From Scenedesmus sp. PABB004 (Eukaryota), in contig CM026547.1 of assembly GCA_014905635.1 (NCBI GenBank), positions 3,348,001 through 3,412,000 on the forward strand: 64,000 nt of DNA. Direction: 5' to 3'. The notes under the pieces were generated by a model that was not told the DNA's origin, did not search any database, and worked only from the letters and a program-made list of their open reading frames with translations. Below are positions 17,942-51,430 of the stretch, one piece after another (position 1 is the first letter of the stretch; every line of letters begins with the position of its first letter). Made by a program: the position numbers and the translations under genes.

Positions 17942-17995
17942 GTTCAATGATCATAAGCTGCGCAGCGCTGGCGCGCGCGCCTGCGCGCGGCTGGC

Positions 17996-18050
17996 GCGGC
18001 CTGTGCGGCGGCCGGCGCGGTGAAGGCGGAGCAGCGCTGGCGGTGTCGGG
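17996..18050 (+). repeat. ~55-bp dispersed element, copy 1 (inverted copy at 22712-22769)
   Basis: gcggcctgtgcggcggccggcgcgg-tgaaggcggagcagcgctggcggtgtcggg matches the reverse complement of 22712-22769 with one 3-nt indel and 2 mismatches. Confidence 0.85.
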
Positions 18051-22711: not shown

Positions 22712-22769
22712 CCCGACGCCGCCAGCGCTGCTCCGCCTTGACCGCCGCGCCGGCCGCCGCACAGGCCGC
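22712..22769 (-). repeat. ~58-bp dispersed element, copy 2
   Basis: Reverse complement of 17996-18050; abuts the 14-bp tandem duplication tcaaatccgcgtag x2 at 22683-22710. Confidence 0.85.
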
Positions 22770-22821
22770 ACCCGCCGAGGTTTACAGCACGACACGCACC
22801 GCGTCGTGCCTGCGCGCCGCG

Positions 22822-27776: not shown

Positions 27777-28944
27777 ATGACGGACTCGACCGATGACTTT
27801 GGCTACGCGGCCACCAACTACAACCTGGCGGGCCTGGTCGACGACTGCAACCTGCTCGGCGCGGTGCTCGACGACTGCGTCAAGGCCGAGGTCGGCACGG
27901 AGCTGTTCAGCAAGATCGAACGCATCCGCAGCCTCGCACAATGCGCGGCGCAGCTGGCCAACAAAAACGATGCGGTGCGGGCCATCACCGGGCGCAGAGC
28001 AACAGCCCTAGGGGCCCCACGCGCCAGCGCGCGCCCCCAGCGGCGCGTGGAGGCCTGGCCGTCCCCCGCGCCGCAGCTGGGCCGCGCCGCGGCCCGCCTA
28101 GGCCACGGGCGGCGCCTGAGTGCCCCGGGCATCTGCTGCTGCTGCCGCCCCGCAGGGCGCCTCGCGCATGCTCTCGCAGCGCATGGCCGACGAGCTCATG
28201 AACATGAGCCTGGATGAGGCCATGCCCCTCACGCGCGCGCTGGGGCACTACCTGAGCCTCACGAGCATCGCCGAACTGCACCACAGGCGCGGCGCGGCGC
28301 GGCGCGCCGAGCGCGGCGGCGGCACGCAGGCGGCGCCAGCAGCGCCAGCAGTGCTAGCTCCGCCAGCAGCGCCGGCGCCCGCGCTCAGCGCCCGCGGCCG
28401 GCCTCCTGCGCAGGGTGCGGCGCGCGCGCAACGAGGGCAAGAACCCCAAGACCTGCGACGAGACGTTTGAGCGCCTCGTGACGGAGGGCGTCGACCCGGA
28501 CGACCTCTACCACGAAATCACACACCAGGCGCGCACACCTGCCGGCGGGCGCGCAGCTGCCGGCGGCGCGCCCGGCGGCGCAGCCGGGCGGGCCGCGCGT
28601 GCTGGTGGGCCGCAGCAGGCGCCGGCGCGCCCCGCTGACCCTGTCCGCCCGCCCGCCCGCCCGCTCCTCCGCGCGGCGCCGCAGACCGTGGAGATCGTGC
28701 TGACGGCGCACCCGACCCAGGTCAACCGCCGCACGCTGCAGTACAAGCACAGCAAGATCGCGGCGCTGCTCACGCAGCACGACCGGCCCGACCTGACCTC
28801 GGAGGAGCGGGACAGCGTGATCCAGGACCTCGTGCGCGAGGTCACGGCGCTGTGGCAGACCGACGAGCTGCGCCGCCAGCGCCCCACGCCCGTGGATGGT
28901 GAGCGCCGGCGGCGGCGGCGGCGCTTGCAGCGGCGGCGGCTGGC

Positions 28945-28992
<48 letters not shown>

Positions 28993-31900
28993 GCCCACCG
29001 CGCACGCGCGCGCCCCCGCCCGCAGAGGCGCGCGGCGGGCTGCACGTGGTGGAGCAGAGCCTGTGGGCGGCGGTGCCGTCGTTCCTGCGCCGCCTGAGCG
29101 CGGCGCTGAAGAAGCACACGGGGCGGGAGCTGCCGCTCAACGCGACGCCGATCAAGTTTGGCAGCTGGATGGGCGGCGACCGCGACGGCAACCCCAACGT
29201 CACCGCGCAGACGACGCACCACGTCGTCGCGCTCAGCCGCTGGATGGCCGCCGACCTCTACCTGCGCGAGGTCGATGTGCTGCGCTTCGAGGTGCGCGCC
29301 AGCCAGCCAGCGCCCGCCCGCCCGCGCGCGCGCGCGCCGCGCCGCGTGCTGCGCGCCGCGCCGCCGGCGGGCCGTGTGCTGCGCGCCGCGCCGCCGGCGG
29401 ACCGTGTGCTGCGCGCCGCGCGCCCTGGCCCATGCGTGCCGCCCGCGCCGCGCGCCGCCCGCGCCCGCTGCAGCTGTCGATGAGCCAGTGCAGCGACGAC
29501 GTGTGGCGCATGGCGCGGGAGATCATGGACGACGCGCGGCACCGCGACGACGTCGTCGACGCGGCGGCGCAGAAGCTCGCCATGTTCACGCACGCCGCCA
29601 ACAGCGACGGCCAGCTGCCCGACGGTGCGCGCGCGCGTGCGCTCGCAGCGGCCGCGACGGCAGCGGCGGCGGCGGCGGCTGCTGCGCCGCCCCCGCCGCG
29701 CGCCGCTCAGGCCTCCCCGCCGCGCCGCGCCGCGCGGCAGGCATGGTCATGGGCACGCGGCCCGGCGCGGCGGGCGAGAGCGTGGCGCTGGCGAGCGAGG
29801 CGAGCGTGACCGTGCCGCACGAGCTGCCGGGCCAGGACCCCGAGGGCGGCAGCGAGGTCAACTTTGCGCTGGGCGGCGACGACTCGAGCAGCGCCGCCGC
29901 GACGCCGCGCGCCGACCCCTCGTCCTCGGGCGGCGGCGCCACGTTCTCCTCGGCCGGCGGCGCCGCCGAGGACGGCCCGCTCTCGCCGCCGTCCCAGGTC
30001 CCCGCGCTCGCCGGCGCGGCGGGCGGCGCGAGCGACGACGGCGCCGGCCCCGGCCTCGGCGGCAGCTGGCAGGACCTGCACAAGCTGCGCTCGCAGAGCG
30101 TGCGCGTCAACGCGCTGCAGGCGCACTTCACCGGCGACGCCGCGCCGCCGACGGGCGCGGAGCGCCGGCGCTTCTACAGCCGCACCACGACCGAGGCGCT
30201 GAAGAAGGCGCACAAGCAGCACCACACCGGCGCGCACCCCTACCGCGTGGTCCTGGGCGAGGTGCGGCGCAAGCTGCTCAACACGCGGCGCCGCATGGAG
30301 GAGATGCTCAACGGCGCCGCCGACGGGCCCCTGCACGGCGGCGGCGACGACGACGACGACTGGTACTCCCACGAGCAGCAGCTCGCGCAGCCCCTGCTTG
30401 CCGTCTACTGGTGCGCGGCGCGCGCGGGGGCGCGGGCGGGCCGCGCGGGGCGCGCTGCGCGGCGCGCGGGGCCACCCCGGCCGGCGCGGGGCCCCTCGGC
30501 CGGCGGCGCTGCCGCCGCGCGCGTGCCGCGCGTCACGCGCGTCCCCCCGCCCGCGCGCCGCGCGTCGCCGGCGTCACGCAGGTCGCTGTGGGAGTGCGGG
30601 GGCGGCATGATCGCCGACGGGCGGCTGCTGGACCTCATCCGCCGCGTGTACAGCTTCGGCATGTCCCTGCTCAAGCTGGACATACGCCAGGAGTCGACGC
30701 GCCACGCCGACGCGCTCGACGCGGTCACCACGCACCTGGGGTACGGCTCGTACAAGGCCTGGGACGAGGACACCAAGTGCGAGTGGCTCACGCGCGAGCT
30801 CGAGACGCGGCGGCCCCTCATCCCCCTCAACATGCCCATGACAGACGAGGTGGGGCGTCAGAGCGGCGCGGCGGCGGCACGGCGCGGCGGCGGCGCTTTG
30901 GTGGCGGCGCGGCGCGCCTGCTGCCGCCCGCGCGCCGGGGCCGACGCGCGCGCCGCTGCCGGCGCGCCGCGCCGCGCAGGTGCGCGAGGTGCTGGACACG
31001 TGCCGCGTCGCGGCGCGCCTCGGCACGAGCAGCCTCGCCGCGTACGTCATCAGCATGAGCCAGGCCGCGAGCGACGTGCTGGCGGTGGAGCTGCTGCAGA
31101 AGGAGGCGCGCCTCATGGTGCGCCGCGCCGCGCCGCGCCGCGCCGCGCCGCGCGCCCGCCCGGCCGCGCGCCCACCCGCGACCCGCGGCGCCCGCGCGGC
31201 GCAGGTCGCGGCGGAGACGGGCAAGGCGCCGGACCACGCCAACTCGCTGCGCGTGGTGCCGCTGTTTGAGACGCTCGGCGACCTCGACGCCTCGGCGGGC
31301 GTCATGCGGCGCCTGTTTGACAACCCCTGGTACCGCGCCCACCTGCGCACCGTGCACGACAACCACCAGGAGGTCATGCTCGGCTACAGCGACAGCGGCA
31401 AGGACGCCGGCCGCCTCGCCGCCAACTGGGCGCTCTACCGGTGCGCGACGCCTGCGCCAGCGCATGCCCGCGCCAGCGCCAGCAGCCGGCCGCGCGCGGC
31501 GCGCGCGCAGCGGCCGCGCGCGCGCGCCCGCCCGCCCTGCACGCCCTGCCCTCTCCCCAACACCCCTCCCGCCGCCTCGCCCGCCCGCTCCCGCCCGCCT
31601 CTCCCGCGCGCAGCGCCCAGGAGAGCCTCGTGTCGATCGCCAAGGGCGCGGGCGTGAAGCTCAACCTCTTCCACGGCCGCGGCGGCACGGTCGGCCGCGG
31701 CGGCGGGCCGACGTACCTCGCGATCCAGTCGCAGGCCCCCGGCAGCGTGGAGGGCCAGTTCCGCATCACCGAGCAGGGCGAGATGGTGCAGGCCAAGTTT
31801 GGCATCCCCATCGTCGCGCAGAACCAGCTCGAGATCTACACCACCGCCGTGCTGCTCGCGAGCATCAAGCCCCCGAGCGCGCCGCGCGTCGAGGCGTGGC

Positions 31901-33402
31901 GCGACAACATGAACCTGCTCGGCGACCTCTCGTGCCGCGCATACAGGCGCGCCGCGCCGCCGCGGGCGCGGCCGCGCCGCAGCACGGAGCACACACAGCA
32001 CGCGCGGAGCGCAGCACAGCACACGTGCGCCGTCGCTGACGCGCCGCTGCCGCGCGCTCACGTGCCGCGCGCTCGCCGTGCCGCGCCGCGCAGGTCGGTC
32101 GTGTTTGAGCACCCCCACTTCATCAGCTACTTCAGCGCCGCGACGCCCGAGAGCGAGCTGGGCAACCTTAACATCGGCTCCCGCCCCGCGCGGCGCAAGG
32201 TCGGCGCGAGCGTGCACAACCTGCGCGCCATCCCCTGGATCTTTGCCTGGACGCAGACCCGCCTCATCCTGCCCAGCTGGCTCGGCGTCGGCGACGCGCT
32301 CAACCAGCTCATCAAGGAGGTGCGCGCGAGCAAAAACGACCGTTCCAGCAGCGCCCACGCGCAGCGGCGCCTCCTGGGGCAAGGAGGCGGGCCGCCGCAC
32401 GCCTCCACGCGCAGCAGCGCGCGCCGCGGGGGCCCGGCCGCCGCGCGGCGCCCGTTCCCTCCGCCGGGCCGCCGCCAGCGCCGCCGCGCGGCCGCGCCGG
32501 CACCTCGGCAGCGCCGGCGATGCGCGAGGCAGCGCACGGCGCCCAGCGCGGCCCGTCGCACTCGGCGCGCGGGCGCGCGGGGCTGGGGGAGACCGCGAGT
32601 GCCCGGGTCGGGCGGGCCGCGCAGCGCCGGTTCGCCGCGCCCCGTCGGCGTCCAAGAGCTCCCGTGCGGCCCCGCTGCCCTCTCACCTCTCCCCGCGCCC
32701 CGCCCCGCCCCTGCCCCGCGTGCGCCGCGCCGCGCGCAGGGCAAGAAGGCGGAGCTGCAGAAGATGTACGAGGAGTGGCCCTTCTTTGCGGCGACGGTGG
32801 ACCTGATTGAGATGATCCTGGCCAAGGCCGACATGCGCATCGCGGGCCTCTACGACGACGTGCTCGTCGACGATGCCGCCGGCAAGAAGCTCGGCAGCGA
32901 GCTGCGCCAAAAGTTCACAGACACCGTGCGCGCGATCTGCGAGGTGCGTGCGGCGCGCGGCGCGCCCGCGGCGGGGGCCGGCCCTCCCGGCCGCCGCCCT
33001 GCGAGGCCCGGCCGGCGCGCGCGCCTGACAGAACTCGACCCGGCCCGGCCCGCACGGCGCGCGCCGCGCGCAGGTGACGGGCCACGAGCGGCTGCTGCAG
33101 GACAACCCCGCGCTGCGGCGGCTGATTGAGATGCGCAACCCCTACATCGACCCGATCAACATCCTGCAGGTGAGCGCACGCACGCATGGAAACGGGGCCG
33201 CGCCGCGCCGCGCCGCGCCGCGCCACGTGCGCTGCCGCTCGGCCGCTGCGGCGCGCCGTGCGGCCGGCGCCCACCCGCCGCCGCGCCGCCGCAGGTGGAG
33301 GTGCTGCGCCGCGCGCGCGCCGACCCGCGCAACGCGCGGCTGCGCGAGGCGCTGCTCATCACCATCAACGGCATCGCCGCGGGCATGCGCAACACGGGCT
33401 GA
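27777..33402 (+). CDS. ppc: Phosphoenolpyruvate carboxylase, bacterial-type (Ppc2/BTPC class)
   Basis: [70 protein letters not shown], and C-terminal [14 protein letters not shown]. N-terminus is MTDSTDD; long disordered insert. Confidence 0.97.
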
Positions 33403-33661
33403 GCGCGAGCGCGCGGGCCCTGACGGGGCGTCGACCTGGCGCACGGCAGGGGGGAGGGGGCGGCAGGCGCGGCGGGCGCAGCGTGGCGCGCAGCAGAGTA
33501 TTCATTGGCATTGACATGCACATTTCGGGGGCGGCAGGCGAGGGCGGGCGGCACCGGCGTCGGCCGGGCGCGGGCCGCCGGCAGGGATGGCGGGGCCGAG
33601 CGTCCGTCAGGCGCTGCAGTGCACCCACCGCATGGCGTGCAAGCACGCGCAGCTGGCCGGC

Positions 33662-33666
33662 TGTAA
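33662..33666 (+). promoter_or_regulatory. TGTAA green-algal polyadenylation signal (PEPC)
   Basis: TGTAA 260 nt after the PEPC stop. Equivalent signals occur at 16099-16103 (+), 51809-51813 (+), 22782-22786 (-), 45934-45938 (-) and 18061-18065 (-). Confidence 0.65.
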
Positions 33667-33841
33667 CGCACGAATGCTCGAGCCTCGCGCGACGGCTCGG
33701 CGTGAGTGGCGCCGGAGCGCGAGTTGACTGCGCGCTGAGTTTGACCACGGGTTGACTGCGCGCCGGAGCCTCACGCTCGGCAGCCGCCCGCCGCGCGCCG
33801 TCGGCCCGCGCCCTGGACTGCGCTCCAGCGGACGACGGTCC

Positions 33842-34308
33842 TGCCTGGACGCAGACCCGCCTCATCCTGCCCAGCTGACTCGGCGTCGGCGACGCGCTCA
33901 ACCAGCTCATCAAGGAGGTGCGCGCGAGCAAAAACGACCGTTCCAGCAGCGCCCACGCACAGCGGCGCCTCCTGGGGCAAGGAGGCGGGCCGCCGCACGC
34001 CTCCACGCGCAGCAGCGCGCGCCGCGGGGGCCCGGCCGCCGCGCGGCGCCCGTTCCCTCCGCCGGGCCGCCGCCAGCGCCGCCGCGCGGCCGCGCCGGCA
34101 CCTCGGCAGCGCCGGCGATGCGCGAGGCAGCGCACGGCGCCCAGCGCGGCCCGTCGCACCCGGCGCGCGGGCGCGCGGGGCTGGGGGAGACCGCGAGTGC
34201 CCGGGTCGGGCGGGCCGCGCAGCGCCGGTTCGCTGCCCCCCGCCGGCGTCCAAGAGCTCCCGTGCGGCCCCGCTGCCCTCTCACCTCTCCCCGCGCCCGC
34301 CCCGCCCC
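33842..34308 (+). pseudogene. Direct duplicate of a PEPC exon end plus most of the following intron (source ~32244-32710)
   Basis: Near-identical ~467 bp. The copy has TGG>TGA in the LPSW codon and several other substitutions, and lacks the intron acceptor. Confidence 0.92.
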
Positions 34309-34400
34309 GCGCGCCCCCGCGCCCGCGCCCGCGCCCGCCCGCGCCCGCCTCCGCGGCCCGCCGGCCCCGCCCCTCACCCTCACCCCACCCAACCCACGCC

Positions 34401-35800
34401 ATGGCTCCCACCCTCTCCCTGCACGCGGCGCTGGCCGTGCTGCTGCTGGCGGCGGCCGCGCCGCGCCCGGGCGCCGCCTGGAAGCGCGGCCGCGCGACGT
34501 TCTACGGCAACGAGCCCTGGTACTGGAGCATCCACCACGGCAGTGAGCGCGCTGTGCCGGCGGCTGCCGACGGCGCGGCGGCGCGCCCGCCGCCGCGCGC
34601 GCAAGCCTGGCCCGCCGGCGCTCCCCGACCGTCTGCCGCCCCGCCCCGCCCCCGCTGGCCAGGCTGCGGCCTGGGCTACCAGTGGCCCGACCAGGGCACG
34701 GGCTGGAACGTCGCGGCGCTGGCCGACACGCACCCCGACTACCGCGGGAGCTGCGGCGCGTGCTACGAGGTGCGCTGCGACAGCGCCGTGCTGCGGGACG
34801 GCTACGGCGACTCCATCGACCGCACCGGCGCCTGCCGCGACCCCGAGGCCTCGGTGATTCTCAAGATCACAGACACCTGCCCCTGCACCTACAGGCGCGC
34901 GCGCTGCCGCGCGCCCGTCGCCGCGCGCCGCGCGCGCGCCGCCCCGCCGCCGCTGCCGCGGTCGCCCAGCCACGGCCGCGGCTGGCTCGCTCGCTGGCTA
35001 CAGGAACAACTACTACTCCAACAAGCGCTGGTGCTGCGGCGACATGGTGCGCGCCGCGCTGGGTGGCACGCGCGCGCGCGCGCGCGCACCGGTGCCGCGC
35101 CCAGCGCGCGACGCGCGCCACCGGCCGAGCGCGGCGCCCGCCCCGCCCCGCCCCGCCCGCGGCGCGCCAGGACCACATGGACGTGTCTGTCTGGGTGTTT
35201 CAGGCCCTCACCGACATGAAGTGGGGTGAGCGCCGCGCGCCGCCGCCGCCGCGCGCCGCGGCCTCGCGCTGGCGCCGGCCCACGCCCGCCGCCCGCCGCC
35301 TCGCCGCCGCCTCGCCGCCGCCGCGCCCGCGCCTGCGACCAGGCGTGGTGCCGATCGAGTACCGGCGCGTGGACTGCGGCGCGCAGCCCGCCAAGCGCGC
35401 GGGCGGCGCGAACTTCCCCGGCGAGTGAGTGTCACTGGCTGGACGCCCCCCCCCCCCCCCCGCGCCGCCCTGGCCTGGCCCGCGTGCCGCGCCGCCGCCG
35501 CGGGCGGCCCACCCGCGCCCGCGCGCCGCGCCGCCGCCGTGGGCGGCCCACCTCGGCCCGCCCGCCTGCCCGCCCGCCTGCTGCGCGCGCGCATCGCCGC
35601 GCGCCAGGTTCCCACCCAAGGCCCTCGCCGGCAGCCGCCCGGGCTTCGACTGGCACAAGGCCTTCCCCAGCGGCGGCTACCTCAACGCCCACGCCGGCGA
35701 CGGCAGCAAACTCGTGAGCGTCGATGATTTCCTGCGCATGGCCGGCCGCGCCAGCGGCGGGGGTGGCGGCGGCGGCGGGTACGCGCAGTTTGGCAAGTGA
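34401..35800 (+). CDS. Secreted expansin-like (DPBB/RlpA-fold) protein, 6 exons
   Basis: Signal peptide MAPTLSLHAALAVLLLAAAAP, then WKRGRATFYG, GCGLGY, GSCGACYEVRC, ITDTCPC, WCCGDMDHMDVS and GVVPIEYRRVDC. Confidence 0.88.
35425..35607 (+). repeat. Intron of the expansin-like gene, homologous to ODC intron 38482-38608
   Basis: Shared GTGAGTG..TCACTG.CTGG.CGC, ccgccctggcctggcc, gccgcgccgccgccgcgggcggcccacccgcgcccgc and terminal cgcgccAG. Confidence 0.8.
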
Positions 35801-37344
35801 GGCTGCGCCGCGGGGGCCTCTGAGTCTCAGAGTCTGAGAGGGGACAAGAGGGGGCAGGCCCAGCACACAGCGCCCGCCAGGCAGACAGGGCAGTAGGGTC
35901 GCTGCGCACTTGGATTCGCCGCGTGCGCGTGTGTCGGTGCGCGTTGCTTGCTCACCGTGCGTTTTTGGCCAGGTGTGGGGCGAGGGGGCGCGGCGCGCCG
36001 CTGCGGCCGCCGCTGCTTGGGCTCTTGCGCTGCCAGCAGTGCTGCTGCGCCGGCGGCGGCCGGCTGAAGAAATGGGACAAGCTGATCAGGATTCATGAAT
36101 CCGGCACGGCACGCGCGCCGCGCGCGGCCCCCCTCCGCTGGGCGGCGGCGCGCGCGGCGGGCCGCTGCGAGCACCGCCCATCACACCGCACCTCTCTTTG
36201 CGCGAGATCACACGCCGCGCACGGGACCTCACAGGCCACCGGCCGCCCCGCGTGGGGCGGCGGGCGGGGCTGCGACACACTTGAGCGAGTAACCAGCGCG
36301 AGTTGAGCGAGTAACCGAGCGGCAGCCAGCAGAGCGGGTCGGCGCTCGGCGGCTGCAACGATTGCCTGGCGACAATCGATCGATCGCGGGGGTCCGAGGG
36401 GGCTTTGTTACCTTGCTCACCAGCCCCGCACGCTGAACCGCGGCGCGATCGGTCGGTCGCGCGCCGCACAGACGGCGGCGGCCCGCACGCCGAGCGCGCG
36501 CGCTGCAGCGTGAAATGAGAGGATGACGACAGTCAGTCCTGCAGACACGCGGCAGTTCCTCCGCGGCGGCCCCCTGACGAGACGTGGCGCGGAGCCTAAA
36601 ACCGCCAGGCGGGCCACTGCGCGGGCCCAAGGCCGCGCCGGGCCGCGCGCGCACGCGCGTGCGGCGGCTCGCGGCGGGCGCGAATGCACCAGGTGCGAAT
36701 GCACCAGGTGCGAGAGAGCTCAAGTCCTGCAGCCGTCGCGCGGGCGGGCGGCGCGGGCACGCGCGCGCGTGTGCGCGCGCGGGAGCGCCGCCGGCCCGTG
36801 CGACCCCTGGCCCTGCAAAAACGCTGCCGCAGGGTGCCGTGCTGTTGCCAGGCGGCAGCGCGCCGGCGGCCCGTGCGCGCCGGCGGCTGTGCACTGCGCT
36901 AGCTACGCCGTTGCCGACGCCCCCCGGGAGCCGGGGAGCCCATCCCCACAGTGAGAGCCAACCAGCCGGCGACGCCAAACCCCACGCACCATACCAGCGC
37001 GCGCCAGCGCTGCGCAGGCGCGCCGAGACGCGCCGCGCAGCGCCGCGCTGGCGGCGCCCCGCGGGATCACAGGGGCGCCGCCGCGCGCATGAATCCCTGC
37101 ATAATTGCTCCGACGCGCGGCGCCGGCGCGTGGCGCGCACGCGGCGCGGCGCGTCGCGCCGCGCCCCCCGCCGCCGGCCGCCGCGCCGGTGCGCGCGGGC
37201 CGGCGCGCGGGGTGCGCGCCCAGCGCCGGCCGCGAAACAAACGAATGCGCTCCCGCGCGCGGCGCCGCGCTCTCCGCGCGGTTGCGCACGGGCTGCCGTC
37301 TCGGGGCGCCGCCGCCGCCGCCGCCGCTGCCGCGCCGCGCCGCG

Positions 37345-39047
37345 TCACGCGGCGGCGGGCTCGGCGGCGGGCTCGGCCGGCGTGGGGTCGGCGGGCGCGT
37401 CGCTGGTGTGGTCGCTGTAGACATAGAAGAAGCGCGGCGTGGTCATGGCGATGCCGTTGAAGTCGCACGCGCCCGCGACGGTGTACGCGCCGGCGTTGGG
37501 GAAGGCGAGCCAGTCGCCGTTGCGCAGCAGCGGGAGCGGGACGTCCTTGTAGACGCAGTCGGCGCTGTCGCAGGTCGGGCCCCACAGCGTGCTCGTGAAC
37601 ACCGGCGGCGCGCCAACGAGGGCTGGCAGCTCCGGCGAGCGCAGCACCATGTACTCGGGGTTCTGCCCATCGTACCTGCGCGCCACGCGCGCGGCGGCGC
37701 GGCGGCGGCGGCGGCGTCAGCGCGCGCTGCGCGTGCAGTGCCCGCGCGGCGCGGCGCCAGCGGCGCCAGCGGGGCGCCGCGGGGCCAGCGCAGCGGGCGG
37801 CTGCGGCTCACAGGATGCAGTTGAAGCTGCCGTAGAGGCCGTCGGTGATCCAGTAGTCCTTCTTGATGCCCCCCGCGCCGTCGACGCGGTCGCGGGTGCC
37901 GTAGACCGGGGTCAGCAGTGTTCCAGCTGTCTCCGCAAAGTAGCGCCCCGGCTCGGCGATGACCTGCACCCCGCTCTCGGGAGGGAAGTGGGCGGCCAGC
38001 GCGCCGTTGATGGTCGTGGCGATGTCGCCAAACATGACGTTGCCGCAGCTGTCAAAGTGGCCTGTGAAGCCGCCGCCGATGTCCAGCAGGCCCATGGCAA
38101 AGCCCATCTCCTTGCCCAGGTCGAAGATCTGGGCGCGGGGCCGCGGCGGGGAGGGGGCGGGGCGAGGGGCGAGGGGGTCGGCACGGCCGGGGCGTGGGCG
38201 CGCGCCGTGCCCGCGGGGGCGGCGGCCGCGCCGCGCGCCTGCGCAGGCGCCCCTGCAAGCGCGCGCGCGCGCGCCGCACCTCGCGGGCCTTCTCGATCGC
38301 CGCGCTGTACGCGGCCAGGTTCTTGCACGCGCTGCCGACGTGGAAGCTCACGCCCACGACCTCCAGGCCCAGGCGCTGCGCGGTCGCGAGCAGGCGCGGC
38401 GCCTCCTCGGGGTTGGCGCCGTACTTGAGCCCCAGCGGCACGCGCGCCTCGGGGTCGTCCGCGCGGATGCGCAGCACGCACCTGGCGCGGCGCGGCGCGG
38501 GCGGGCGGGCGCGGGTGGGCCGCCCGCGGCGGCGGCGCGGCGCGCGGGGCCAGCAGGCCAGGCCAGGGCGGTGGGGCGGGGGCGCGCCCAGGCAGTGAGG
38601 GCACTCACTTGAAGGCGCGGTTGAAGTTGGCGACCTTGGCGAGCTCGCTCTCGGTGTCAAACGTGGTGAGCCCCACGCCGTGCTCGCGCGCGTAGCGGAT
38701 GTCGCACGGCCGCTTGCACGGGTGTGCAAAGATGATGCGGCTCGGCGACACGCCCAGCTCCAGCACCTGGCGCACCTCGCCCAGGCTCGCGCAGTCAAAG
38801 CCCGCGCCCAGGGCGGCGAGCAGGCGCACCATGCCCGCGTTGGGGTTGCACTGCGCGCGGCGGCGGCGCGCGGGTGGGCGCGGGCCGGCCGGGAGGCTGC
38901 GGCCGTGCCGCGGCGCATGGGGCGCAGCGCGCGGCGCACCTTGATGGCGTAGAAGGGCAGCACGCGCGGCATGGCGGCGCGCCACGCCTGCGCGCGCACA
39001 GAGAGGGGGGGGGGGCAGGTCAGCGCCCGGCGCGCGGCACGCTAGGG

Positions 39048-39080
<33 letters not shown>

Positions 39081-39477
39081 AGCTGCTGCTGCTGAGACTG
39101 CAGCAGCTGCTGCTGGCGCTGCGCGCGTGCGCGCCTTGTAGAGGCGCACGACGTTGGCGAGGTCCATGACGTAAAACGTGTCGTCGAGCTGGTGCGCGCT
39201 GATGAGCTTGGAGGCCTCGGCCTTGAGGCCCTCCGGCCCGCCGTCGACGATGCGCTGGACCTGCAGGTCCATCAGCACCGCCGCCGCGCCGGGCTTGCCC
39301 GTGGCGGACAGCTGCCAGCTGCCGCGCGTCTTGGCGAGCGCGGCGGCGTCGGGCGCGCGGTCAAACTCGCCCGAGAAGCGCTCCAGGGCCTTGTCGCCGC
39401 GCTTGTGGCCCTGCGGCGCGGCGGGGCGCGCGGAGAGTGTGAGGCGGCGCGGCTGCCGCCGGCTGCCATGCATGCGC

Positions 39478-39512
<35 letters not shown>

Positions 39513-39695
39513 CGCCGCGGCGCCGCGCGGGCGCACATGGCCGGGCTTGAGGTGCTCCAGCGAGCCCGCGCGCGGGCTCAAGGCGTCCAGGCAGTCGCTG
39601 GCATGGCTGCTGAGCTTGGGCGAGAGCAGGCAGGCGTCGGGGCACCCCCCGTCCAGGCTCGGGCTGGGGCGCAGCAGCGACGCCGACGAGCTCAT
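37345..39695 (-). CDS. ODC: Ornithine decarboxylase (fold-III PLP enzyme)
   Basis: FYVMDLANV, PRVLPFYAIKCNP, GFDCAS, FAHPCK, LGLKYGA, GVSFHVGS, LLDIGGGF, AEPGRYF, DGLYGSFNC, WGPTCDSAD and GAYT..ACDFNG. Confidence 0.96.
38482..38608 (-). repeat. ODC intron homologous to expansin intron 35425-35607
   Basis: Reverse complement starts gtgagtgccctcactgcctgggcgc and ends cgcgccgcgccag; it aligns with the expansin intron. Confidence 0.8.
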
Positions 39696-40270
39696 GCCTG
39701 CCGAGCGGCGGCGGCGCCGGCGGGCGACCCGGGTGAGTCGGGCGGCACGCCAGGCGTCCGCCGGGCCGCGCGGCCTGGCCCGGGGCGCGCCGGCTGTGTC
39801 CCGCCCGCGGCCAGCTGGCGTGGGGCATGCCGCAGCGCCGCGGCCCGCCCGCTGCCGTGCCCGCCTGGCCCCGCCGGGCGCGCCCCGAGGGCCTGCCGCC
39901 CGCCAGAGCACGCGGGGACGGCGCGCGGTGCCGCCGGCCGCCGGCAACTGCAGGCGGGGGCGTGCGCGCCCCGCCGGCGCCGCGCCCCCGCTGCCCGCGC
40001 CCGCAGCGCCGCCGCGGGCGGCTGACGCGCAGGGTCGGCCAGCTGTCGAGGGGGGGCGCGCCTGGAACGCGCGCGCGGGCAGCACAGAAGCTGCCCCGAT
40101 TGCGGGCGCAGCCCTGCCCCGCCTCGCCCGCGCGCCGCCGACGCGCCCGGAAGCGTGAACCAGGGGGGCCCTCACCTCCTCCCGGTGGGCGGGACCGGCC
40201 GCGCGAAGCCCGTACACGGCCTGGGGAGCGGGGGCGGGTCAACCAGCTCCGCGGCCCACTCTAGCACCAC

Positions 40271-40333
40271 CTAGCGCCCGAAAGGGGGCTTGGGGCCTTT
40301 GAACACGACGGCGTGGGTGGTCGTTGCGCGCAT
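40271..40333 (-). promoter_or_regulatory. Candidate upstream ORF (MRATTTHAVVFKGPKPPFGR*) in the ODC 5' leader
   Basis: ATG at 40333, TAG at 40273-40271. It is followed by the donor GAG|GTGAG at 40175 and an acceptor CAG at 39698, 2 nt before the ODC ATG. Confidence 0.55.
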
Positions 40334-40730
40334 TTGTCTTGGGGTGACTGGCGGCGCCTCGGGCGGGGCTGCCCTTTCGCCGGGCGAGCCTCGGGAATTC
40401 CTCCGGGCGCAGCACGGTCTCACACTCCAGCGCGCAGCTGCTCTCGGCTCAGGGCCGGCACACGCTCCCGCGGGACGGCGCGCCGCGCAGACCCGGGCCG
40501 GCGGCGGGCGCCCGGGCCGGCGGCGGGCGCCCGACCAGCGGCGCACGGCACGTGCCGCGCGCGCCGCCGCGCACCACCGGTGCGCGACCGGCAGCTCCCT
40601 GCCGCCCGCCAGTCGCCTCCTTACCAGTTCAGCGGATCAAATCTGGGCCGAATGCGGCACGCGCAGACTCGGCGGTGACCGCTACGCCAAAACCCAGCGC
40701 TGGTGCCCGCGGCTCCGACGCCGGCCTCGC

Positions 40731-42489
40731 TCAGCAGCCGCCGTCGCCGCCGCCGCCGCCGCCCGAGCTGGCCGCCAGCAGGCCCACCAGGCGCGGCCAC
40801 TGCTCGTGCGTCATCCACGCCACCTGCTGCTCCGCCGCGGCGTGCGCGGCGGCCTCCCAGCCCACGCCCAGGCGGCAGAGCTGCCCCGGCTCGCCGTCCA
40901 GCAGCAGGCGCTGCAGCACGCGGCCCCGGGCCTCCTGCGCGACCGCGTCGGCGAGCTCGCCGTGCAGCAGCGACAGCAGCGGCTGCAGGCAGCCGCGGCT
41001 GGCAGCAGCTGCGGCGGCGCCAGGGCTGGCCGCGAGCATGGCGCCATCCACGGGCTGCTCGCTGAACGCGGTCAGCTCTGCCTGCAGCCGCGACAGTGCC
41101 GCCCCCAGCGCGGCGGCCGCGTGCTCGCCGCCGGCATGCAGATCCTGCAGGCCCACGCCGAGCACGCGCCGCAGCGCGGCGTCGTGGACCTCCAGCGCCT
41201 CGCCCTCGCTCTCCTCCTCGCTGGCCTCCTCCTCGCTGACCTTCTCGCTGGCCTCCTCGCTAGCCTCGCGCCCGCGGCCCTCCTCGTCCTCCCTGCCCGA
41301 ACGCGGGCTGGCTGGCTCCAGGCTCGTCGGCGAGGCTGACCGGGCGCCGCCGGCGCCCCGCAGGTCGTGCTCCGCGGCGCCCAGCAGCCCCAGCGCGGCG
41401 GCCGGCAAGGCCGTGTGGTACAGGGCGTTGCTGGTCCAGCGCGCGGGCGAGCCGAGCTGAGCCGGGCGCGGCGCGCCCGGCGCCAGCAGCCCGTGCACCG
41501 GGGCGGCGGCCTGCGGTGCGTGGACACGCAGCGCCGGCGTGAGCTGGTGCGAGGCACCTCCCCTCCCTGAGCCCCCGTGGTGCGTCCCCCGGCTCACCTC
41601 GCCCCTGAAGCGCCGCGACAGGCTGCTGAGCTTCATGGCCAGGGACAGCAGCAGCGCGGTGTCGTCGCTCGCGTCCAGCATCGACTGCAGCTGCCCCGGC
41701 GGCGGCGCCGGCTGCAGCTCTGCTCCGCCGCGCTGCAGGAGTGCGGCGGCGCTGGCCGACGGCGGCGCCGCCCCTGCGTCGTCCGGCAGCTGTGCGCTGG
41801 GCAGGCCGCTGCCCGCTGGCGACTGCCGCGCTGGCATCACCCCGCCCGCTGGCGAGGCCGTGCCTGCTGTGCAGCTGCTGCTGTCACGGCCGCTGGCAGC
41901 AGCCGGCGAGGCAGTCGCGCTGGCGCCTCCCCCCGTCCCGCAGCTGCTGACGGCTTCGCCAGCACCTGACTGCACTTCCGGCGCCCCCGCTGCCGACGCG
42001 GCCTCCTGCAACGCCGCCTGCGAGACCACCGCCTCGAGCTCGGCCGCGGCCGGCGTGCTGCCTGCCGCGCCTGCCTCCTGCAGCCGCTCTGAGATCCGGC
42101 GCAGCCAGTCACGAGCGCTTGAGCTGGCCTGACGCTCGCCTCCGTCCTCGCTGGGCGCCGCCACCACGCCGCCGCCGCCGTCGGCCGTGTCCGCGCCTGG
42201 CAGCGCCACGCTTGCCGCCCGGCTCGGCCTAGCGGACGCCGCCTGGCTCCAGGCCGCGCTGGCCTCGGTGCTGCCAATGGTCTGGAGCGTGCTGCGCAGC
42301 GTCTGCAGCTTGGCCAGGGCACGCTCGACCTGGGACGGCCCCGCCGCGCCGTCGTCAGCGGTGGGCGCTGGCGCTGCGCTGGCATCGCCTGCGGCGCCCA
42401 GCTGCGCGCTGCCCTCGCCGCCAGCCTGGAACAGGCTGTTCAGCTGGAGCAGCACGCCCTGCTCGCTGCCCAGCTCTGGCTGCAGCTCG

Positions 42490-42525
<36 letters not shown>

Positions 42526-45500
42526 CCGTCGGTCGCCGCCGGCGGCGCCGCCTCGCCCCGGCAGGCAGCGGCGCCGTCAGGCGCCGGCACGTCGGACTGG
42601 CTGGCGGTACGGGACATGCCCGACGCCGAGCGCGCAACCTGCCGGCCGGGCGACGCAGCCGCGCACGGGCCGGTCGTGCACGGGACAGCAGCAGCGGGCG
42701 GGCCCGTCGCTGCGTCCTCGCCCAGCTGGCCCTCGCCGGCCTGCGACAGCTGCTGCAGCGAGGCGAGCAGCTTGAGGCTCTCTGCCCTGCTCGCCTCGGG
42801 GCTGCCGGGGACTGCCGGCGGCTGCGGCGGGCCCAGCTGGCGCTGCCCGCCCGCCCCGCGCTGCTCCACGCCGCCGCTGCCGCCCACGTCGTCGCCAGCG
42901 GACGGCTCGCGGCTCGCGCCGCCGGTCTGGTGGCTCAGAGACTCGAGCAGCCCCTGCACGCGCGCGCCCACGCTGCGCAGCAGCTCCAAGCTGCTGCCGC
43001 CCTCGCGGCCGTTGCGCGAGCCCTGCCTGCTCGCGCCCCTGCTCAGCTCCCGCGCTCGCAGGCGGCCGCTGCTGCAGCGGCTGCTGCTGCGGCTGCGCGG
43101 GTCGGCGAGCACCGGGCTGGGCACCCACGCCACCTCGGGCGTCGCCGCCTCGACAACCGCGCCAGCCACGGTGGGCACCTGCCAGCGCTGCCGCGCACGG
43201 CGCGCGTGCCCGTCGTCCCCGGCGGGGCTGCCAGCGCTGCTGCAGGAAGCCTCCCGCAGCGGGTCCGCCTGCTGCGGAGCCGCGAGCGCTGCGCGGTCAG
43301 CGGGGCCGCCCGCTGCATCTGCAGGCTCGCTGCGGAGCGCGCCCAGGGGCTCGTCCCAAGGGGCGGCCGCAACGGCGGCCGCTGCCGCTGCTTCCGTCCC
43401 GCCTGCTGCGTCTGCTGCGCCCGCCGCGCCGGCGGCAAGGCCGGGCTGCTCGGCGTGCGGCAGCGCTGAGAAGCTGGCCTCCGCAGCAGGGCTGTGACCG
43501 CCGCCAGGCGCGTGCCACTGCTCCTGCGGCGCCCAGCCGCAGCTGCCTGCGACCGGCCCGCGACCGCCGCCGGGCGCGTCCGCGCCGCCCGGCGGCGCCG
43601 CGCTGCCAGTGGCTGCAGCGAACGCGGCCGCTGCGGCCGCGGCGGCCGCCGCCGCGGCGCCCTCCTGGCCACGCAGGGGCGAGCCGTGCGGGCTGCTGAT
43701 TGTGATGCCCAGCTCCACGCGGCCGTGCACGTGGTGCGAGACCTCGAGGCGCGCGGGGCCGAGCTGCCCCTGGTCCAGCACGTGCAGCGCGTCGCCCGCC
43801 GCCGCCGACAGCGGCGAGCCCGGCGCCGCAAAGCCAAAGTGCTGCTGGACGCCCGAGCACGCGCCTGCGAGCGGCGAGTGCACGGTGTAGGGCTGGTCCG
43901 GCTGCGCGGCGCTGCACGTCTGCGACGCCGCGTCCGCGTTGGGCTTGTCGGCGAGCGCCAGCCGCCGCGGGGGGCTCTGGTCCTGCCCGCCGCACTCGTG
44001 CGGCGCGTCGCCGGGCGCCGCCGCCGCCGCCGGTGCGGGCGGCTCAGGCTCGGGCCGCCGCGGCAGCGAGGGCGGCGCAAACACCTGGATACCAAAGTCC
44101 AGCGCCTCCCCCGCGGCGTGGCGGGGCCGCGTGAAGCGCGGCGCCGTGCCAGAGCTGCGGCCGGGCGGGCGCGCACGCGTGAGCCTGCGTGCCACGGCGG
44201 CCCCGTCGAGCGGGCTGGGGCAGGGCAGCGCGCGCAGCGCCCCACCTGGACGAGGCGCGCGCGCTCGCGGGCCGGCCGCCGCCGCCGCCGCCGCTCGTGG
44301 AGCCGCGCGCGCCGCCAGCGCTGCCCGCGGCGCTCGCGCGGGCGCGCCGCCCCGGCGCGCCCGCCACGGGCGTGACGGGCTCCGCCGCCGCCGCGGCGGG
44401 GCCGAGCTCGGGCGGCGGCGGGTCGGGCAGCGCGTGGAGCGCCTCCAGCGCGGCGGCCGCGGCCGCCCGCACTGCAGGGATCTTGTCGTAACGCACCTCC
44501 TCCAGCGCCTGGGGGGAGGGGGATGCAGCCGAGAACTGAGGCGGCTGTGCGCGCCTCGCTGCCGGCCCAGCCGGCGCCGTGCGCGGGCGCGCGCGGCGGC
44601 CGCGGCGCTGCTGCTGTGGCGGCGGCCCACCTTGAGGGCCTGGGGCTTGCGCGCGACCAGCGCGTCGAGCCCCGGCATGGCCAGCGCCGCCTCGCCGCCG
44701 GGCGTGCCCAGCACCGCACCCGCCAGCACGGCCAGGGTGTGCAGGGCGTCCCGGCGCACCTGCCAGCACTCCTTGGCGGCCGCGCCCCTGACGCACAGCG
44801 CAAGCAGCCGCCTGGCGTCCCCCCCGTCCGTGGACGGCCCCAGCACCTCCACGCAGGTGCACGCGGGCAGCAGCACGCCCGGCACGCGCGGCCCGGGCGC
44901 GCCGCCGCCCGCCAGCAGCTGCAGCATGAGCGCCAGGCAGCGCCGCACCGCGCCCACGACCGCCTCGGACGCCGCGTACGCGCGCAGCACCTCCAGCGCG
45001 CCCAGCAGCACCGCGCTGCCCGCGCCCACGCGCGCGGCCTCCGGGTCGCGCAGCGTGCTCGTGATGATCGGCAGCAGCAGCGCGTCGCACGCCGCCGCCG
45101 CCGCGCCGCCGCCGCGCAGCGCCGGCGGCGCGCCGGCGTCGCCGCCGGGCGGCTCGTGCAGCAGCTTGGCGAGCGTCGACGACACGAGCGCCGCGAGCGC
45201 GGCGACGCACTCGCCGTGCTGACGGTTCCGCGACAGCACGCCGCCCGCGCACTGCTGCCCCGCCAGCAGCGGCAGCAGCGCTGGCAGCTGCGCCCGCGGC
45301 GCGCACTTGAGGACGGTCCACTCGGCCAGCTGCAGGCGCAGCTTCACCGCGCGGCGCCCGCTGGCCTCCAGGCCGGCGCAGAGCTCGACCAGCGCCGCGC
45401 GAACCAGCGCCGGCTCCCGCTCCAGGCCCGCGAGCAGCATGCGCACGGCGCCCACGGCCTGGGCGTCCAGGTCCCGGCTCTCCAGGCCCGCCAGCTCATA

Positions 45501-45602
45501 CTTTAGGCGCTGCCGCAGCGCAAACGGCGTCAACGCGTGCTGCTCGCCGCTGCTGCGCGCCGCCGCCGCCGCCGCCGCCGGCCAGGGCGCGGCCGGCTGC
45601 AT
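40731..45602 (-). CDS. TORTIFOLIA1/SPIRAL2-like HEAT-repeat protein with long disordered C-terminal region
   Basis: N-terminal helical repeats, including ECWQVRRDALHTLAVLA and ALEEVRYDKIPAVRAAA (similar to the TOR1-family RFDKVKPVR). Two introns near 44155-44245 and 44510-44630. Confidence 0.65.
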
Positions 45603-45995
45603 GGCGACGACTCAGGAGGCTCGAGGGCCACGGCGTCACGGCATGGCCCACCCCCGCGCGTGCGCGGTGTGTCGTGGGCTGCAGAGCGGTGCAACAACCG
45701 ACTGTGTCGTCCAGAGCTGGCGCGCGCTGGCGGTGCGGGACGACGCAGACGAGAGCGACGGGAGTGGCGTCAGCGGGCCGGGGGCGCCAGCCTGGCTGAG
45801 GCGAGCGCGCGCCGCCGTTTGCGCGCGTAACGCCGCCGCGTTTTGCGGCGGCATGGAGGCAGCCGTTGAGCCATCCCCCAGATCGCCCACCGACCAGGGC
45901 CTGACACGCGCCGCCGCACGGGCGCGGCAAGCCTTACACGGCGCCGGCAGCGCGCGCAGCACACGGCGTGCCCCAACGCCCCGCGCGCGCGGCGC

Positions 45996-48900
45996 TCACA
46001 GCCCGCCGGGCGCGGCCATGGCCCGCACGGCGCCGCGGACCTCGGGGAAGACGGCGACGAGGCTCGTCTCCATGAGCGTGAGGCCGAGGTGGTACATGAG
46101 CGTGCGGCTCTGCAGCACGCCGATCACGTCGCCGAGGCCGCGCAGCCACGCACCGCGCCCGAGCAGCGCGAGCAGCGGGCCCGGCACGGTCGCGCCAAAG
46201 AGCGCGGCCCGGAGCGCGGCCGCCACGGCCTCGGCGTCGGCGGGCGGGCCCCACTCGAGGAAGCGCTCCGCGGCGATGGGCGGCCCGCGCGGCGGCGGGC
46301 CGCCGCCCGCGTTGGCGCGCGCAAACCACACGCCGCCGGGCCAGAGCTGCGCCTGCAGGCGCGCGAGGTGGCGCACGAGCGCGGCCTCGCCCAGCCCCGC
46401 CGAGAGGGTGCGCTGCATGAAGTCGTCGATCGCGCCGCCGGCGAGCAGCGACAGCAGCTGCCGCGCGAGCGAGATGACCGGCCGCCGCACAAAGCTGCGG
46501 CCGTCGAGCTCAAACACGCAGCTCACCACCTCGTACAGCGGGCCGATCAGGCCGGTGCTGTCCGCGGCCTCGCCCCAGGCGTCGTCGTCGAGCCAGCCGG
46601 AGCCGGCCCCGCCCGGCGGGGCGGGGCTGGGCGGGCACTCGGCGTCGTCCGCCGCCGACGCAGCCGCCGCAGCTGCAGCAGCCGCAGCTGCAGCAGCCGC
46701 AGCTGCAGCAGCCGCAGCAGGCGCCGGGACGGCGACCCCCGCCGCCTGCGCGCCGGCGCCGGCAGCGGGCGGCGCCGCGGCGGCGCCCGCCGCGCCGACG
46801 GACCTGGGCGCTGAGAGCCGCGACGCGCTGGCGCCGCGCGCGGCGGCGGGGCTCGCGGTGGGGCTGCCGCTCGGCGCCACGCCTGCCCGCGGAGCGCCAA
46901 CGATGCTGGCGGAGCCGCCCCGGCTGCTGGAGCCGGGCACGCTCGCTGCCGGCGGTGCGGCGGCCGCGCCCGCGCCCGCCGGCAGCGCCGCCACGCCGCC
47001 GGCCGACCTGCCCCCGCGGCCGGCGGCGCCCGGCAGGCCGCCGCCGCCGCTGCCGGCGGGCGCTGGCCGGCCCAGCAGCGAGGGCGGCGGCGGCCCGTCC
47101 GCCTGCCGCGCCGGCTCCGCGTCCCGCCCGCCCGGCTGCCGCCACGACTCCACGCTCTCTAGGGCCAGGGAGGGCTCTGGCAGAATCTTGTTCGGCACCG
47201 GCGGCGAGCTCGGCTGCAGCAGCCCCGCGCTGGCCTGCGCCGCCCCCAGGAAGCCCGGCTCGACGCTGTCCAGCGTCTCCAGCTGCTGCGCACCGCTCGG
47301 CTGCCGCCGCAGCAGCGCGACCTGCAGCAGCGGCGGGTCGGCGCCGCGCGCAACGCGCCGCTGCAGCAGGCCTGGCTGCTGGTGCTGCGGCAGCGGCTGC
47401 GGCGCCACGGGGCTGCCGTGCCGCTCCGCCTGCTGCTCCTGCTGGTCCTGCGCGCTGCTGCCAGACCGCGCTGCAATCTCGCTCGACTGTACAGTTCCGC
47501 CCTGCCCCTGCCGCTGCTGCTGTGGCAGCGGCGGCGTGGCAGTTTGCTGCTGGCCGCCAGCCGCCACTCCTGGCTCGCCCGCGCAGCCAGCCTCTGGCTT
47601 GCCTCCAGCATCGTTAGCTGCCGCCGGCCCCGCACGGGCGGGCGCGCTGCGCTCGCTGGCGCTGGCGCAGGCGCTGGCGCTGGCTCCGCAGCAGCAGCTG
47701 CTGCCACTGCCGCTGCTGCTGCACGGACCCGATCTGCCGTCGCTGCAGCTGGGGGCGCCGCTGCTGCCTGCGCCGGCCAGGCACGGGCCCGCGGCGCCGC
47801 CGCCGTCGGCACACGCGCCGAGCTCCGGCGCGCCCGCGCCGCGCAGGCGGGCGCAGCTGACGCTGTGCGGGGACGGCAACGGCTGCGGCTCGCCCTCGGC
47901 CGCCGCCGCCGCGGCCGCGGCCGCGAGGCGCCAGCACGCGACGCCGCTGACGTCCTCGGAGCGCGTGCGCTGCCCGAGCGCCAGCCCGAGCTCCGCCTCG
48001 TCGTCGGGCGGGCGGATGCCCTGCGCGCCGTCCGCGGCGGCGGCCATGCCGTACACCTCGCTCGTCTGGCTGAGGAACTGGCGCACCTCGCCGTGGCGCG
48101 CGAGGAAGGGGCTGGCCAGCAGGGCCTGCAGGAACGCGTCGAGCTCGTCGCGGCGGCGCATCACAAACGGCGCGTCGCGCGCGGTGAGCAGGCGCTTGGG
48201 CGGCAGCCCCGCGCGCAGGTCCTTGTACTGCGGCGCGTCGCGCAGGCGCTTGTGCAGCGCCTCAAAGTGGCGGTACCTGCCAGCCGCGGCGGCGGGGCGG
48301 CGCGGCGCGGTGGTCGTCCGGCCAGCCGCAGCAGGGCGTGCGGCGGAGGCTCTGGAGGGGCGCGCGGCACGGCGCGGCGCGCGCCCTGCCGGCGCGGCGC
48401 CCCCCCCCCCCCCCCCCCCTGCACCTGCGCGTGACGGTCCACTCGCCGCGGTCGTCTGCGACGCGGACCTTGTACACGATGCAGTCCTTGCCCTCCAGCG
48501 CGAGCATCTCAGCCGTCACGACCTGCGCCCGCAGCCAGCCGTGCCGCGGCGCGAGGTCGTCCGCGAGGCAGCCCGAGGCCGTGGCCAGCAGCGCCGCGGG
48601 GCCGCGCCCCAGGCCGCACAGCGCCGACACCGCGGGCGACCGCCCCGCCGCGGGCGGCCAGCCGCGCTCCGCGGCGCCGCCGCGGCCGCCCCAGCTGGGC
48701 GAGCCGCCGTCGCCGCACGACGCGGCGCCGCCCGCGCTCATCGCGCGCCCGCCCGCGCCGCCGCCGCGGTGGCCGGCAAAGCGCTCGGGGCTGCCGCCCG
48801 CGTCGACGGTGCTCCAGCTGCGCGGCGAGTCGGGGCCGAGCGACGAGGCGGGGCTGCAGCTGCCAGGCGCGGCCGCGCCGCAGAGCAGCGTGCCGCGCTG

Positions 48901-50720: not shown

Positions 50721-51430
50721 TGGCTCGCGCCAGGGGGTGGCATGCGCGGCGCGTCGCGGCGCGCGCGCGCCGTGCCGGCGCGGCGCCCCTCCTGTACTGC
50801 CCCCTCGCTGCTGCTGCCGGCGCGCGGACGGCGCGGGCGGTCGGGTCGCAGCGCGGCTGCGTCACCAGCGCCGCACCGCGCGCGACGCGTAGGGACGAGC
50901 GCCGCGCCCGGCGTGCGCCGCACCCGCCGAGGTTCACGCCCGACAGCCAGCTCGCGGCCCCCCGCCCAGCCAGGGCGCCGCGCCCTGCGCCGCGGCACTC
51001 GTCCAGCGCGCCAGCCAGCGCCGCCCGACCGCCCGACACGCGCGACAGGATCGCCCGCACGCCGCACGGCACCCCGCCAGGCACTCGCAGCCCGCGGCGC
51101 CCGCCCAGCATGGAGAAGGCCGACGCGCACGCCGTGAAGATCAGCCACCACGCCAACGAGCACAAGGCGCACCTGGACGCCAAGTCCGGGCGCCAGGAGC
51201 GCCACAGCGGTGCGCGCCCGAGGGCGCCGAGCCGCGCCGCGGCGCCCACGGCGCGCTGGAGCGCGCCCGGCAGCGCGCTTCGGGGGCGGCGTGGCGCCCG
51301 CCCCGTCACGGCCGCGCGCTCCGAAACGCCCGCGCCGCGGAGGCGCCGGGCGGGCCGGGGATCTCCCGGCGCCGCTGCTGCCGCGGCGCGCCGCCGCACC
51401 GCCGCCGCGGCGGGCGGGGCCGCCGCGCCG
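50704..51430 (+). repeat. Source arm of a ~725-bp inverted duplication (bidirectional promoter + exon 1 + part of intron)
   Basis: Near-identical to the reverse complement of ~53972-54693. Confidence 0.92.

Follow-up and report, generated by a model that had tools for sequence, protein, structure and literature searches.

The origin of new spliceosomal introns is a long-standing open question, and most young introns have no recognisable source. Pairs in which one intron has visibly been copied from another that lies in an unrelated gene are rare. Such a pair occurs in Scenedesmus sp. PABB004, in a stretch of 64,000 nucleotides of contig CM026547.1 (assembly GCA_014905635.1, positions 3,348,001 to 3,412,000, forward strand), which is called the window throughout and is the scope of all copy counts and block searches given here. 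The question raised by this locus is how the last intron of an expansin-like gene (intron A) and an intron of the neighbouring ornithine decarboxylase (ODC) gene (intron B) came to resemble each other. The two introns are copies of each other, from the first base to the last, and a single local copying event is tentatively favoured as their origin. The elements concerned are the following, with the splice junctions marked by a caret.

35425..35607, + strand: intron A, 183 nt, phase 2, last intron of the expansin-like gene, GA^GTGAGTG...GCCAG^GT
38482..38608, - strand: intron B, 127 nt, phase 2, ornithine decarboxylase gene, AA^GTGAGTG...GCCAG^GT
35486..35522 (+) and 38505-38541 (-): core of 37 nt, an exact match between A and B

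Introns A and B are copies of each other

The two introns are colinear from GTGAGTG through to CCAG. A gap-tolerant global alignment places 116 of the 127 bases of B colinearly on A, and the top local alignment obtained with BLASTN reaches 93 bits, with 84% identity over 108 columns. The 5' block, GTGAGTG(0-3 nt)TCACTG[G/C]CTGG[A/G]CGC, is found at two sites of the window, which are the two donors, and in none of 100 shuffles. Within the window CCGCCCTGGCCTGGCC is likewise confined to A and B, this 16-mer being less specific (34 of the 100 shuffles gave at least two matches with up to two mismatches), and the core has two matches even when up to three mismatches are tolerated, with none in the shuffles. 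The donor word GTGAGTG is itself rare, with four occurrences in the window on both strands, two of which are the donors of A and B, compared with 64 for GTGAGC and 218 for GTGCGC. Given that this rare donor is common to both introns, the homology extends to the first intron base. The 60-nt exon flanks of A and B are unrelated, with local scores of 8 and 6. It is clear from these data that A and B are homologous and that the homology ends at the splice sites. A sequence-only reading of this DNA had described them as twin introns sharing sequence from donor to acceptor between unrelated exons, both in phase 2 and in the context A^GT...AG^GT, and this description holds, including the 5' block and CCGCCCTGGCCTGGCC; the identical block, which it had put at 30 nt or more, measures 37 nt.

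Three controls were used to set the chance level, namely shuffles of the window, other real introns, and GC-rich segments of the window. In 100 block-wise dinucleotide shuffles the top scores were 38.8 +/- 3.5 bits for A (maximum 50.7) and 40.0 +/- 3.3 bits for B (maximum 48.8), which answers the doubt, raised in the same reading, that the similarity might be no better than between shuffled introns. Of the other real introns in the expansin-like and ODC genes, seven have their best off-target matches at 39.1-48.8 bits, and the off-target matches of the eighth comparison intron, o1, are CAG microsatellites. When the 142 segments of the window with at least 87% GC (20.8 kb) are compared, the match of A with B (89-91 bits) ranks just below two segmental duplications, and the background is a continuum from 60 bits down with a median of 44.9 bits.

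These values bear on the idea that the likeness is a matter of chance, or of convergence between C-rich, low-complexity introns under the constraint of the splice signals. Introns at this locus are indeed C-rich, with 88-92% GC (76% in o1, which has a CAG repeat), and CCCAC-type motifs upstream of the acceptor recur in introns e4, o2 and o4, which are placed below. Nonetheless, A and B reach 93 bits, against at most 51 in the 100 shuffles and at most 60-66 among the 142 real GC-rich segments, and they have in common three separate blocks that are exclusive to the pair. With the shuffles, the real introns and the GC-rich segments all far below the pair, chance or convergence is effectively refuted and is given next to no weight.

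Host genes, splicing and anatomy of the pair

Genes were called by Pfam scans of stop-to-stop open reading frames (ORFs) over 24-46 kb of the window, the GC content of which is 75-81% throughout. The genes and introns at the locus are as follows.

~28.1-33.4 kb, + strand: PEP carboxylase (PEPC) gene, multi-exon, identified by Pfam
34401..35800, + strand: expansin-like (DPBB / EG45-like) gene, identified by Pfam and exon peptides
34543-34662 (e1), 34895-35003 (e2, GC-AG), 35047-35170 (e3) and 35226-35342 (e4), + strand: introns of the expansin-like gene, followed by A
37345..39179, - strand: ODC gene, mapped part with the N-terminal end not delimited, identified by Pfam
39134-38988 (o1, GC-AG, CAG repeat), 38939-38851 (o2), 38279-38129 (o4) and 37811-37676 (o5), - strand: introns of the ODC gene, with B between o2 and o4

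The expansin-like and ODC genes are convergent neighbours. The Pfam matches of the former, to DPBB_1 (E = 1.4e-4) and EXPB1_D1 (E = 2.2e-3), both miss the gathering cut-offs, and one of its exons matches the NCBI protein HT031_000662 (P0001) from Scenedesmus sp. PABB004 with 100% identity. Introns e2 and o1 can be drawn only with GC-AG ends, both beginning GCGCGC, and o1 carries a long CAG/CTG repeat.

The ORFs that flank B match Orn_Arg_deC_N at profile positions 25-101 and 104-182. At this junction the window reads ...NFNRAFK, then the intron, then CVLRIRADDPEARVPLGLKYGA..., and seven of the eight green-algal ODC homologues that were fetched, some of them transcript-derived, read ungapped across it as ...FKCVLRIRADDPEARVPLGLKYGA... 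(FKCVLRIRADD); the eighth, P0065, has the divergent GVGLVLRVRCDD at this place and is likewise ungapped. If A were left unspliced, the reading frame would end at a TGA within the donor. The 189-nt exon on the 3' side of A has GC1/GC2/GC3 values of 0.70/0.59/0.90 and resembles the confirmed exons, the values in eight introns being 0.80-0.97 throughout, and the NCBI model P0001 splices A out, reading ...GANFPGE^FPPKALAGS.... Removal of A or B restores the conserved or coding frame, and both have the GT-AG ends of spliceosomal introns; from these reading frames we infer that both are spliced.

The same model reads through introns e1 and e2, dropping the exons NNYYSNKRWCCGDM and HMDVSVWVFQALTDMKWG. 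A database search found no deposited protein 100% identical to two ODC exons, and the ODC gene with B seems to lack a counterpart among the deposited proteins. Given that the deposited model misreads e1 and e2 and that the ODC protein was not found, the deposited annotation of the PABB004 genome is unreliable for intron studies, and B is probably absent from the annotated intron set. The ODC homologue P0004 has 90% identity in the next exon; it translates through o4 and ends at o5, yet is continuous at o2 and B, and may stem either from genomic DNA or from a transcript spliced in part.

In its make-up, A (183 nt) corresponds to B (127 nt) with slippage-type additions, namely a C16 run, a tandem duplication of the core in units of 39 nt, and an expansion of GCCCGCCT close to the 3' end; relative to A, B carries one 3-nt and one 5-nt insertion. 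The run of 16 cytosines lies at 35445-35460 (+), and the corresponding place in B reads CGCCCCCGCCCC. The duplication is located as follows.

35478..35555, + strand: 39-nt tandem duplication in A (units 35478-35516 and 35517-35555), direct repeat with a spacing of 39

The first unit differs from the second at 5 of the 39 positions and from B at 2, and the second differs from B at 5. The divergence between A and B is uneven along their length, given a simulated probability of 0.0067 for an uninterrupted match of 37 or more columns in an alignment of 108 columns that has 17 differences. B holds five adenines, and the sole adenine between 2 and 89 nt from its 3' splice site sits at 34 nt, inside the core. 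The core holds in this way the only plausible branch-point adenine of B and may serve as the branch site, and its identity in the two introns could come from selection on that site or from a later conversion patch.

The folding of the introns shows no excess stability over shuffles (z-scores of -0.45 for B and +1.11 for the first 150 nt of A), and no terminal inverted repeats (TIRs) of A or B are among the repeat pairs found. An Rfam scan of 30000-40000 returned nothing in A or B, its only matches being two sub-threshold ones to miRNA models on the CAG repeat. The translations of A and B, searched as a profile against 1.84 billion proteins, gave one match (E = 6.2e-5), to an unrelated repeat protein. 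Neither intron is a copy of an adjacent exon, as would be seen after intron gain by AGGT tandem duplication, with no adjacent exon among the matches at E <= 1e-4. The only repeats that flank the introns are GT for A and GTG for B. A 2-bp target duplication, as suggested in the sequence-only reading, is compatible with the GT and is at the same time indistinguishable from ordinary splice context, so that only the compatibility stands. AG was rejected as a 2-bp target-site duplication (TSD), given that its duplication would put an extra base into the spliced mRNA.

Copy number, age and local duplications

Two clear copies, A and B, are present in the window, 2,874 nt apart, and no further copy of the 5' block, of CCGCCCTGGCCTGGCC or of the 37-nt core is found there. 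One more match, called candidate C, was considered.

30413..30491, - strand: candidate C, an antisense similarity of marginal strength that covers the 3' two-thirds of A and B and falls within the 5' half of the PEPC intron 30411-30581 (+)

Candidate C scores 58.4 bits to A and 66.1 bits to B, which exceeds all 100 shuffles and lies just above the background of real sequence (at most 60 bits), and it is without the 5' blocks of A and B. As a third member it is marginal. The first half of the PEPC intron that carries it has a G>C skew of +0.21, where the corresponding halves of nine other introns range from -0.25 to +0.06. This PEPC intron, too, is in phase 2, with GT as the next two bases (TG^GT...CAG^GT).

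A 28-mer pattern of the core had no matches in collections of metagenome and viral contigs, in which the loci of the window itself were unmatched too. PABB004 is apparently absent from those collections and, since the window's own loci go unmatched, the blanks say nothing about copy number. In the freshwater metagenome X1, 7% of the sampled words of the window are present; compared with positions 28001-48000 it yields short, low-depth contigs of a close relative together with GC-rich chance pieces, and A and B are uncovered among the 8 listed of 892.

The age of the B position was judged from ORF protein fragments of relatives, of which 16 were inspected among 50 matches to exon 3, their orthology being unproven. 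Eight of the 16 ODC fragments are uninterrupted over the B site, including the closest, P0122 (84% identity), which breaks 7 codons beyond it instead. Two, P0126 and P0127 (68-70% identity), break exactly at the B site, and the remaining six break upstream of it and are uninformative. The metagenomic loci L001 and L020, the latter with 73% GC and on a 51.9-kb contig, are continuous over the site. When the relatives (P0122-P0143) are set against ~38450-38640 (-), five different break places are seen within about 20 codons (~60 nt), after ESELxK, at GF[K/R], after CVLRIR or CVLRIRA, and after DDPE, which suggests rapid turnover or sliding of introns in the ODC gene of these relatives.

The four strongest non-microsatellite repeats between loci of the window, including the pair of A and B, each lie less than 5 kb from their partner (1.6-4.7 kb). 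The other three are these.

32244-32711 to 33842-34308, + strand: direct duplication of PEPC gene sequence, 468 bp, 98.5%, 1.6 kb
50704-51430 and 53972-54693: inverted pair, 731 bp, 96.7%, 2.5-kb gap
17988-18050 (-) and 22712-22777 (+): inverted repeat, 66 nt, 89%, 4.7 kb apart

The 468-bp copy sits between the stop codon of the PEPC gene and the start codon of the expansin-like gene, ending 93 nt upstream of the latter, and includes a GC-rich, intron-like stretch and a PEPC-like peptide of 12 residues (33840-33875). It shows that short-range DNA copying has taken place at the locus of A and B. For the ORFs over the 731-bp inverted pair, Pfam found no family except a weak HABP4_PAI-RBP1 match on 50117-51619. 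The 66-nt inverted repeat lies in apparently non-coding surroundings of lower GC and is seemingly not a pair of introns.

Origin of the pair and comparison with known systems

The assembly is reported to comprise 39.8 Mb in 77 contigs, with 78.5% GC and 1.31% repeats (PMC12571836, in its available parts). It was included in the screen of Gozashti et al. 2025, which lists 0 introner families for GCA_014905635.1 (PMC12130899, supplement file 7). As described in the available text of that paper, the screen compares annotated introns all against all and requires at least four similar introns that belong to different paralogy groups and are similar up to their boundaries. A full-text search of the literature found no paper that joins introners and Scenedesmus, and the published work that names strain PABB004 includes, to judge by titles, apparently none on introns.

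One local copy event, followed by divergence and by the 39-nt tandem duplication in A, is the explanation that we favour, with a probability of about 45%. Local copying is favoured because two copies only 2,874 nt apart in a genome of 39.8 Mb imply either a huge family or local copying, and the first option is set aside because the published screen contradicts a very large family. One of the two introns would have been copied once, boundary to boundary, into the convergent neighbouring gene 2.9 kb away, in inverted orientation at the DNA level and hence in sense orientation in both genes. At the recipient position, the copy would have either made a new intron or overwritten an older one. The likeliest route would be templated repair, or template switching in replication, with the nearby intron as the template, and the common A before and GT after the intron would then have served as microhomologies at the two points of switching. 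Only a copy that splices out exactly would be retained by selection. Later divergence would have come from substitutions and slippage, which may account for the indels, the C16 run, the 39-nt duplication and the GCCCGCCT expansion, with the core left unchanged. We infer that there was a single event, in which either intron may have been the donor, and that its route was at DNA level. That the strongest repeats of the window are all short-range, and that the 468-bp copy adjoins the expansin-like gene, speaks for this local copy.

Several points weigh against it. Nothing inherent in copying at DNA level would place its two ends precisely on splice sites; such precision is better explained by reverse splicing or by a transposon with defined ends, and both are for this reason kept as substantial rivals. 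The A and GT that flank the introns are also ordinary splice context, and o5, one of the eight other introns, is likewise followed by GT. An antisense match such as candidate C in the adjacent gene would fit an element that inserts in either orientation, the copy number is known for the 64-kb window only, and the published screen rests on poor annotation, with B probably outside its intron set. Outside the core, A and B differ in 17 of 108 columns (84% identity), so that the copying cannot be of recent date and may have left blurred traces.

An introner-like family remains the strongest competitor of the local copy, as a possible if doubtful reading, in which A and B would belong to a non-autonomous element that brings or recruits splice sites, is dispersed or hops locally, and escaped the published screen through poor annotation and its own low-complexity, GC-rich sequence. 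Like introners, A and B are similar (93 bits) in non-paralogous hosts, a DPBB/expansin-like gene and an ODC gene, and their similarity runs 5' to 5' and 3' to 3' up to both boundaries and stops short of the exons. The context A^GT...AG^GT in both is compatible with a 2-bp duplication of GT, candidate C may be an antisense fragment in the adjacent PEPC gene, introners are reported to be over-represented among aquatic organisms (PMC9860276, in its available parts), and two copies per 64 kb, if typical of the 39.8 Mb, would amount to about a thousand copies. What is found is nonetheless two clear copies and a marginal one in 64 kb, where introner families were required to have at least four, and 0 families in the published table although A is annotated; with hundreds of members, a family would be expected to show four or more in the annotation. 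TIRs are absent and the TSD is ambiguous, so that neither the inverted repeats nor a locus-specific duplication expected of introners of the DNA-transposon type is seen in A and B. None of the three diagnostic blocks recurs in the window, the copies are diverged with many indels, unlike those of a recently active family, and the reported repeat content is only 1.31% (PMC12571836, available parts). The published screen would overlook a pair or a family of very few members, because B is probably unannotated and at least four introns are demanded. The homology reported in the sequence-only reading fits both of the alternatives that it offered; its mobile intron family finds no support in two window copies without TIRs or unusual structure and 0 published families, and its suggestion that one intron was templated from its neighbour fits better, with the two introns 2.9 kb apart and the other strong repeats also short-range.

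Transposition through RNA, in which an excised intron is reverse-spliced into another transcript, reverse-transcribed, and recombined into the genome as cDNA, accounts well for the limits of the homology, which is the spliced unit from GT to AG exactly. The copied unit is an exact intron in sense orientation in both genes, without flanking sequence or exon carried along from the donor and without inverted repeats, and this is the classical signature of the 14 events described for Mycosphaerella and Oikopleura (PMC3443670, in its available parts). It leaves the adjacency of the two genes, and the short range of the other strong repeats, without an explanation, has no need of the common flanking A and GT, and is a process described in the same parts of that review as undemonstrated in vivo and held to be very rare; for all its substance as a rival, we regard it as unlikely. 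More improbable again is that two old, unrelated introns were homogenised by ectopic gene conversion between inverted neighbours, with no intron gained. The very uneven divergence, with its perfect 37-nt run, could reflect a recent conversion patch, the position of B may be old, being interrupted also in the more distant P0126 and P0127, and strong GC-biased conversion is plausible at 78.5% GC. Conversion needs prior homology, and unrelated introns here reach only about 49 bits; moreover the likeness spans the whole intron, including the rare GTGAGTG donor and the 5' blocks, and is not an internal patch, and the eight of 16 fragments from relatives that are uninterrupted at the B site, the closest of them included, also stand against it.

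If the genome has an active process by which whole introns are copied into genes nearby, or contains a low-copy family of introners overlooked by annotation-based screens, a wider proposition that we hold to be rather unlikely, this would be a case of intron gain caught as it happens, with donor and recipient both identifiable, 2.9 kb apart. A and B are a further instance of a kind that is known and rarely documented, and their adjacency, together with the short-range duplications nearby, makes DNA-templated and RNA-mediated routes directly testable. Should more neighbouring twin introns exist, they would point to a short-range, DNA-templated route of gain distinct from introners of the transposon type and from reverse splicing. 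The ODC gene with B illustrates that poor gene models can let a case escape annotation-based screens for introners.

Among known systems, introners (in Micromonas, Aureococcus, dinoflagellates and others; PMC9860276 and PMC12130899, as described in their available parts) resemble A and B in occupying unrelated genes with homology that ends at the splice sites, in having the same orientation relative to splicing, and in having an aquatic algal host. Their families number from 5 to more than 2,000 copies in those descriptions, whereas A and B are two clear and diverged copies without TIRs and with an ambiguous TSD. Fungal introner-like elements are described as spliceosomal introns that multiply and then degenerate to ordinary-looking ones (PMC3609843, available parts), a course with which A and B might be compared. 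Such elements have a stable structure and extra length, neither of which is seen in A and B; these fold no better than shuffles and have lengths (183 and 127 nt, against 89-151 nt in eight neighbouring introns) that are judged ordinary for the locus. Insertions listed as arising at microhomologies or short direct repeats are, like A and B with their GT or GTG, of local origin and without transposon features; in those cases it is mostly not known where the inserted DNA came from, whereas for A and B the template would be identifiable as a whole neighbouring intron. Intron transpositions in two genera, Mycosphaerella and Oikopleura, of which a 2012 review counts 14 (PMC3443670, available parts), are like A and B in being homologous pairs, single or in few copies, at positions with no other relation, in which the unit is an exact intron; A and B differ from them in organism, and in lying in adjacent convergent genes amid short-range duplications.

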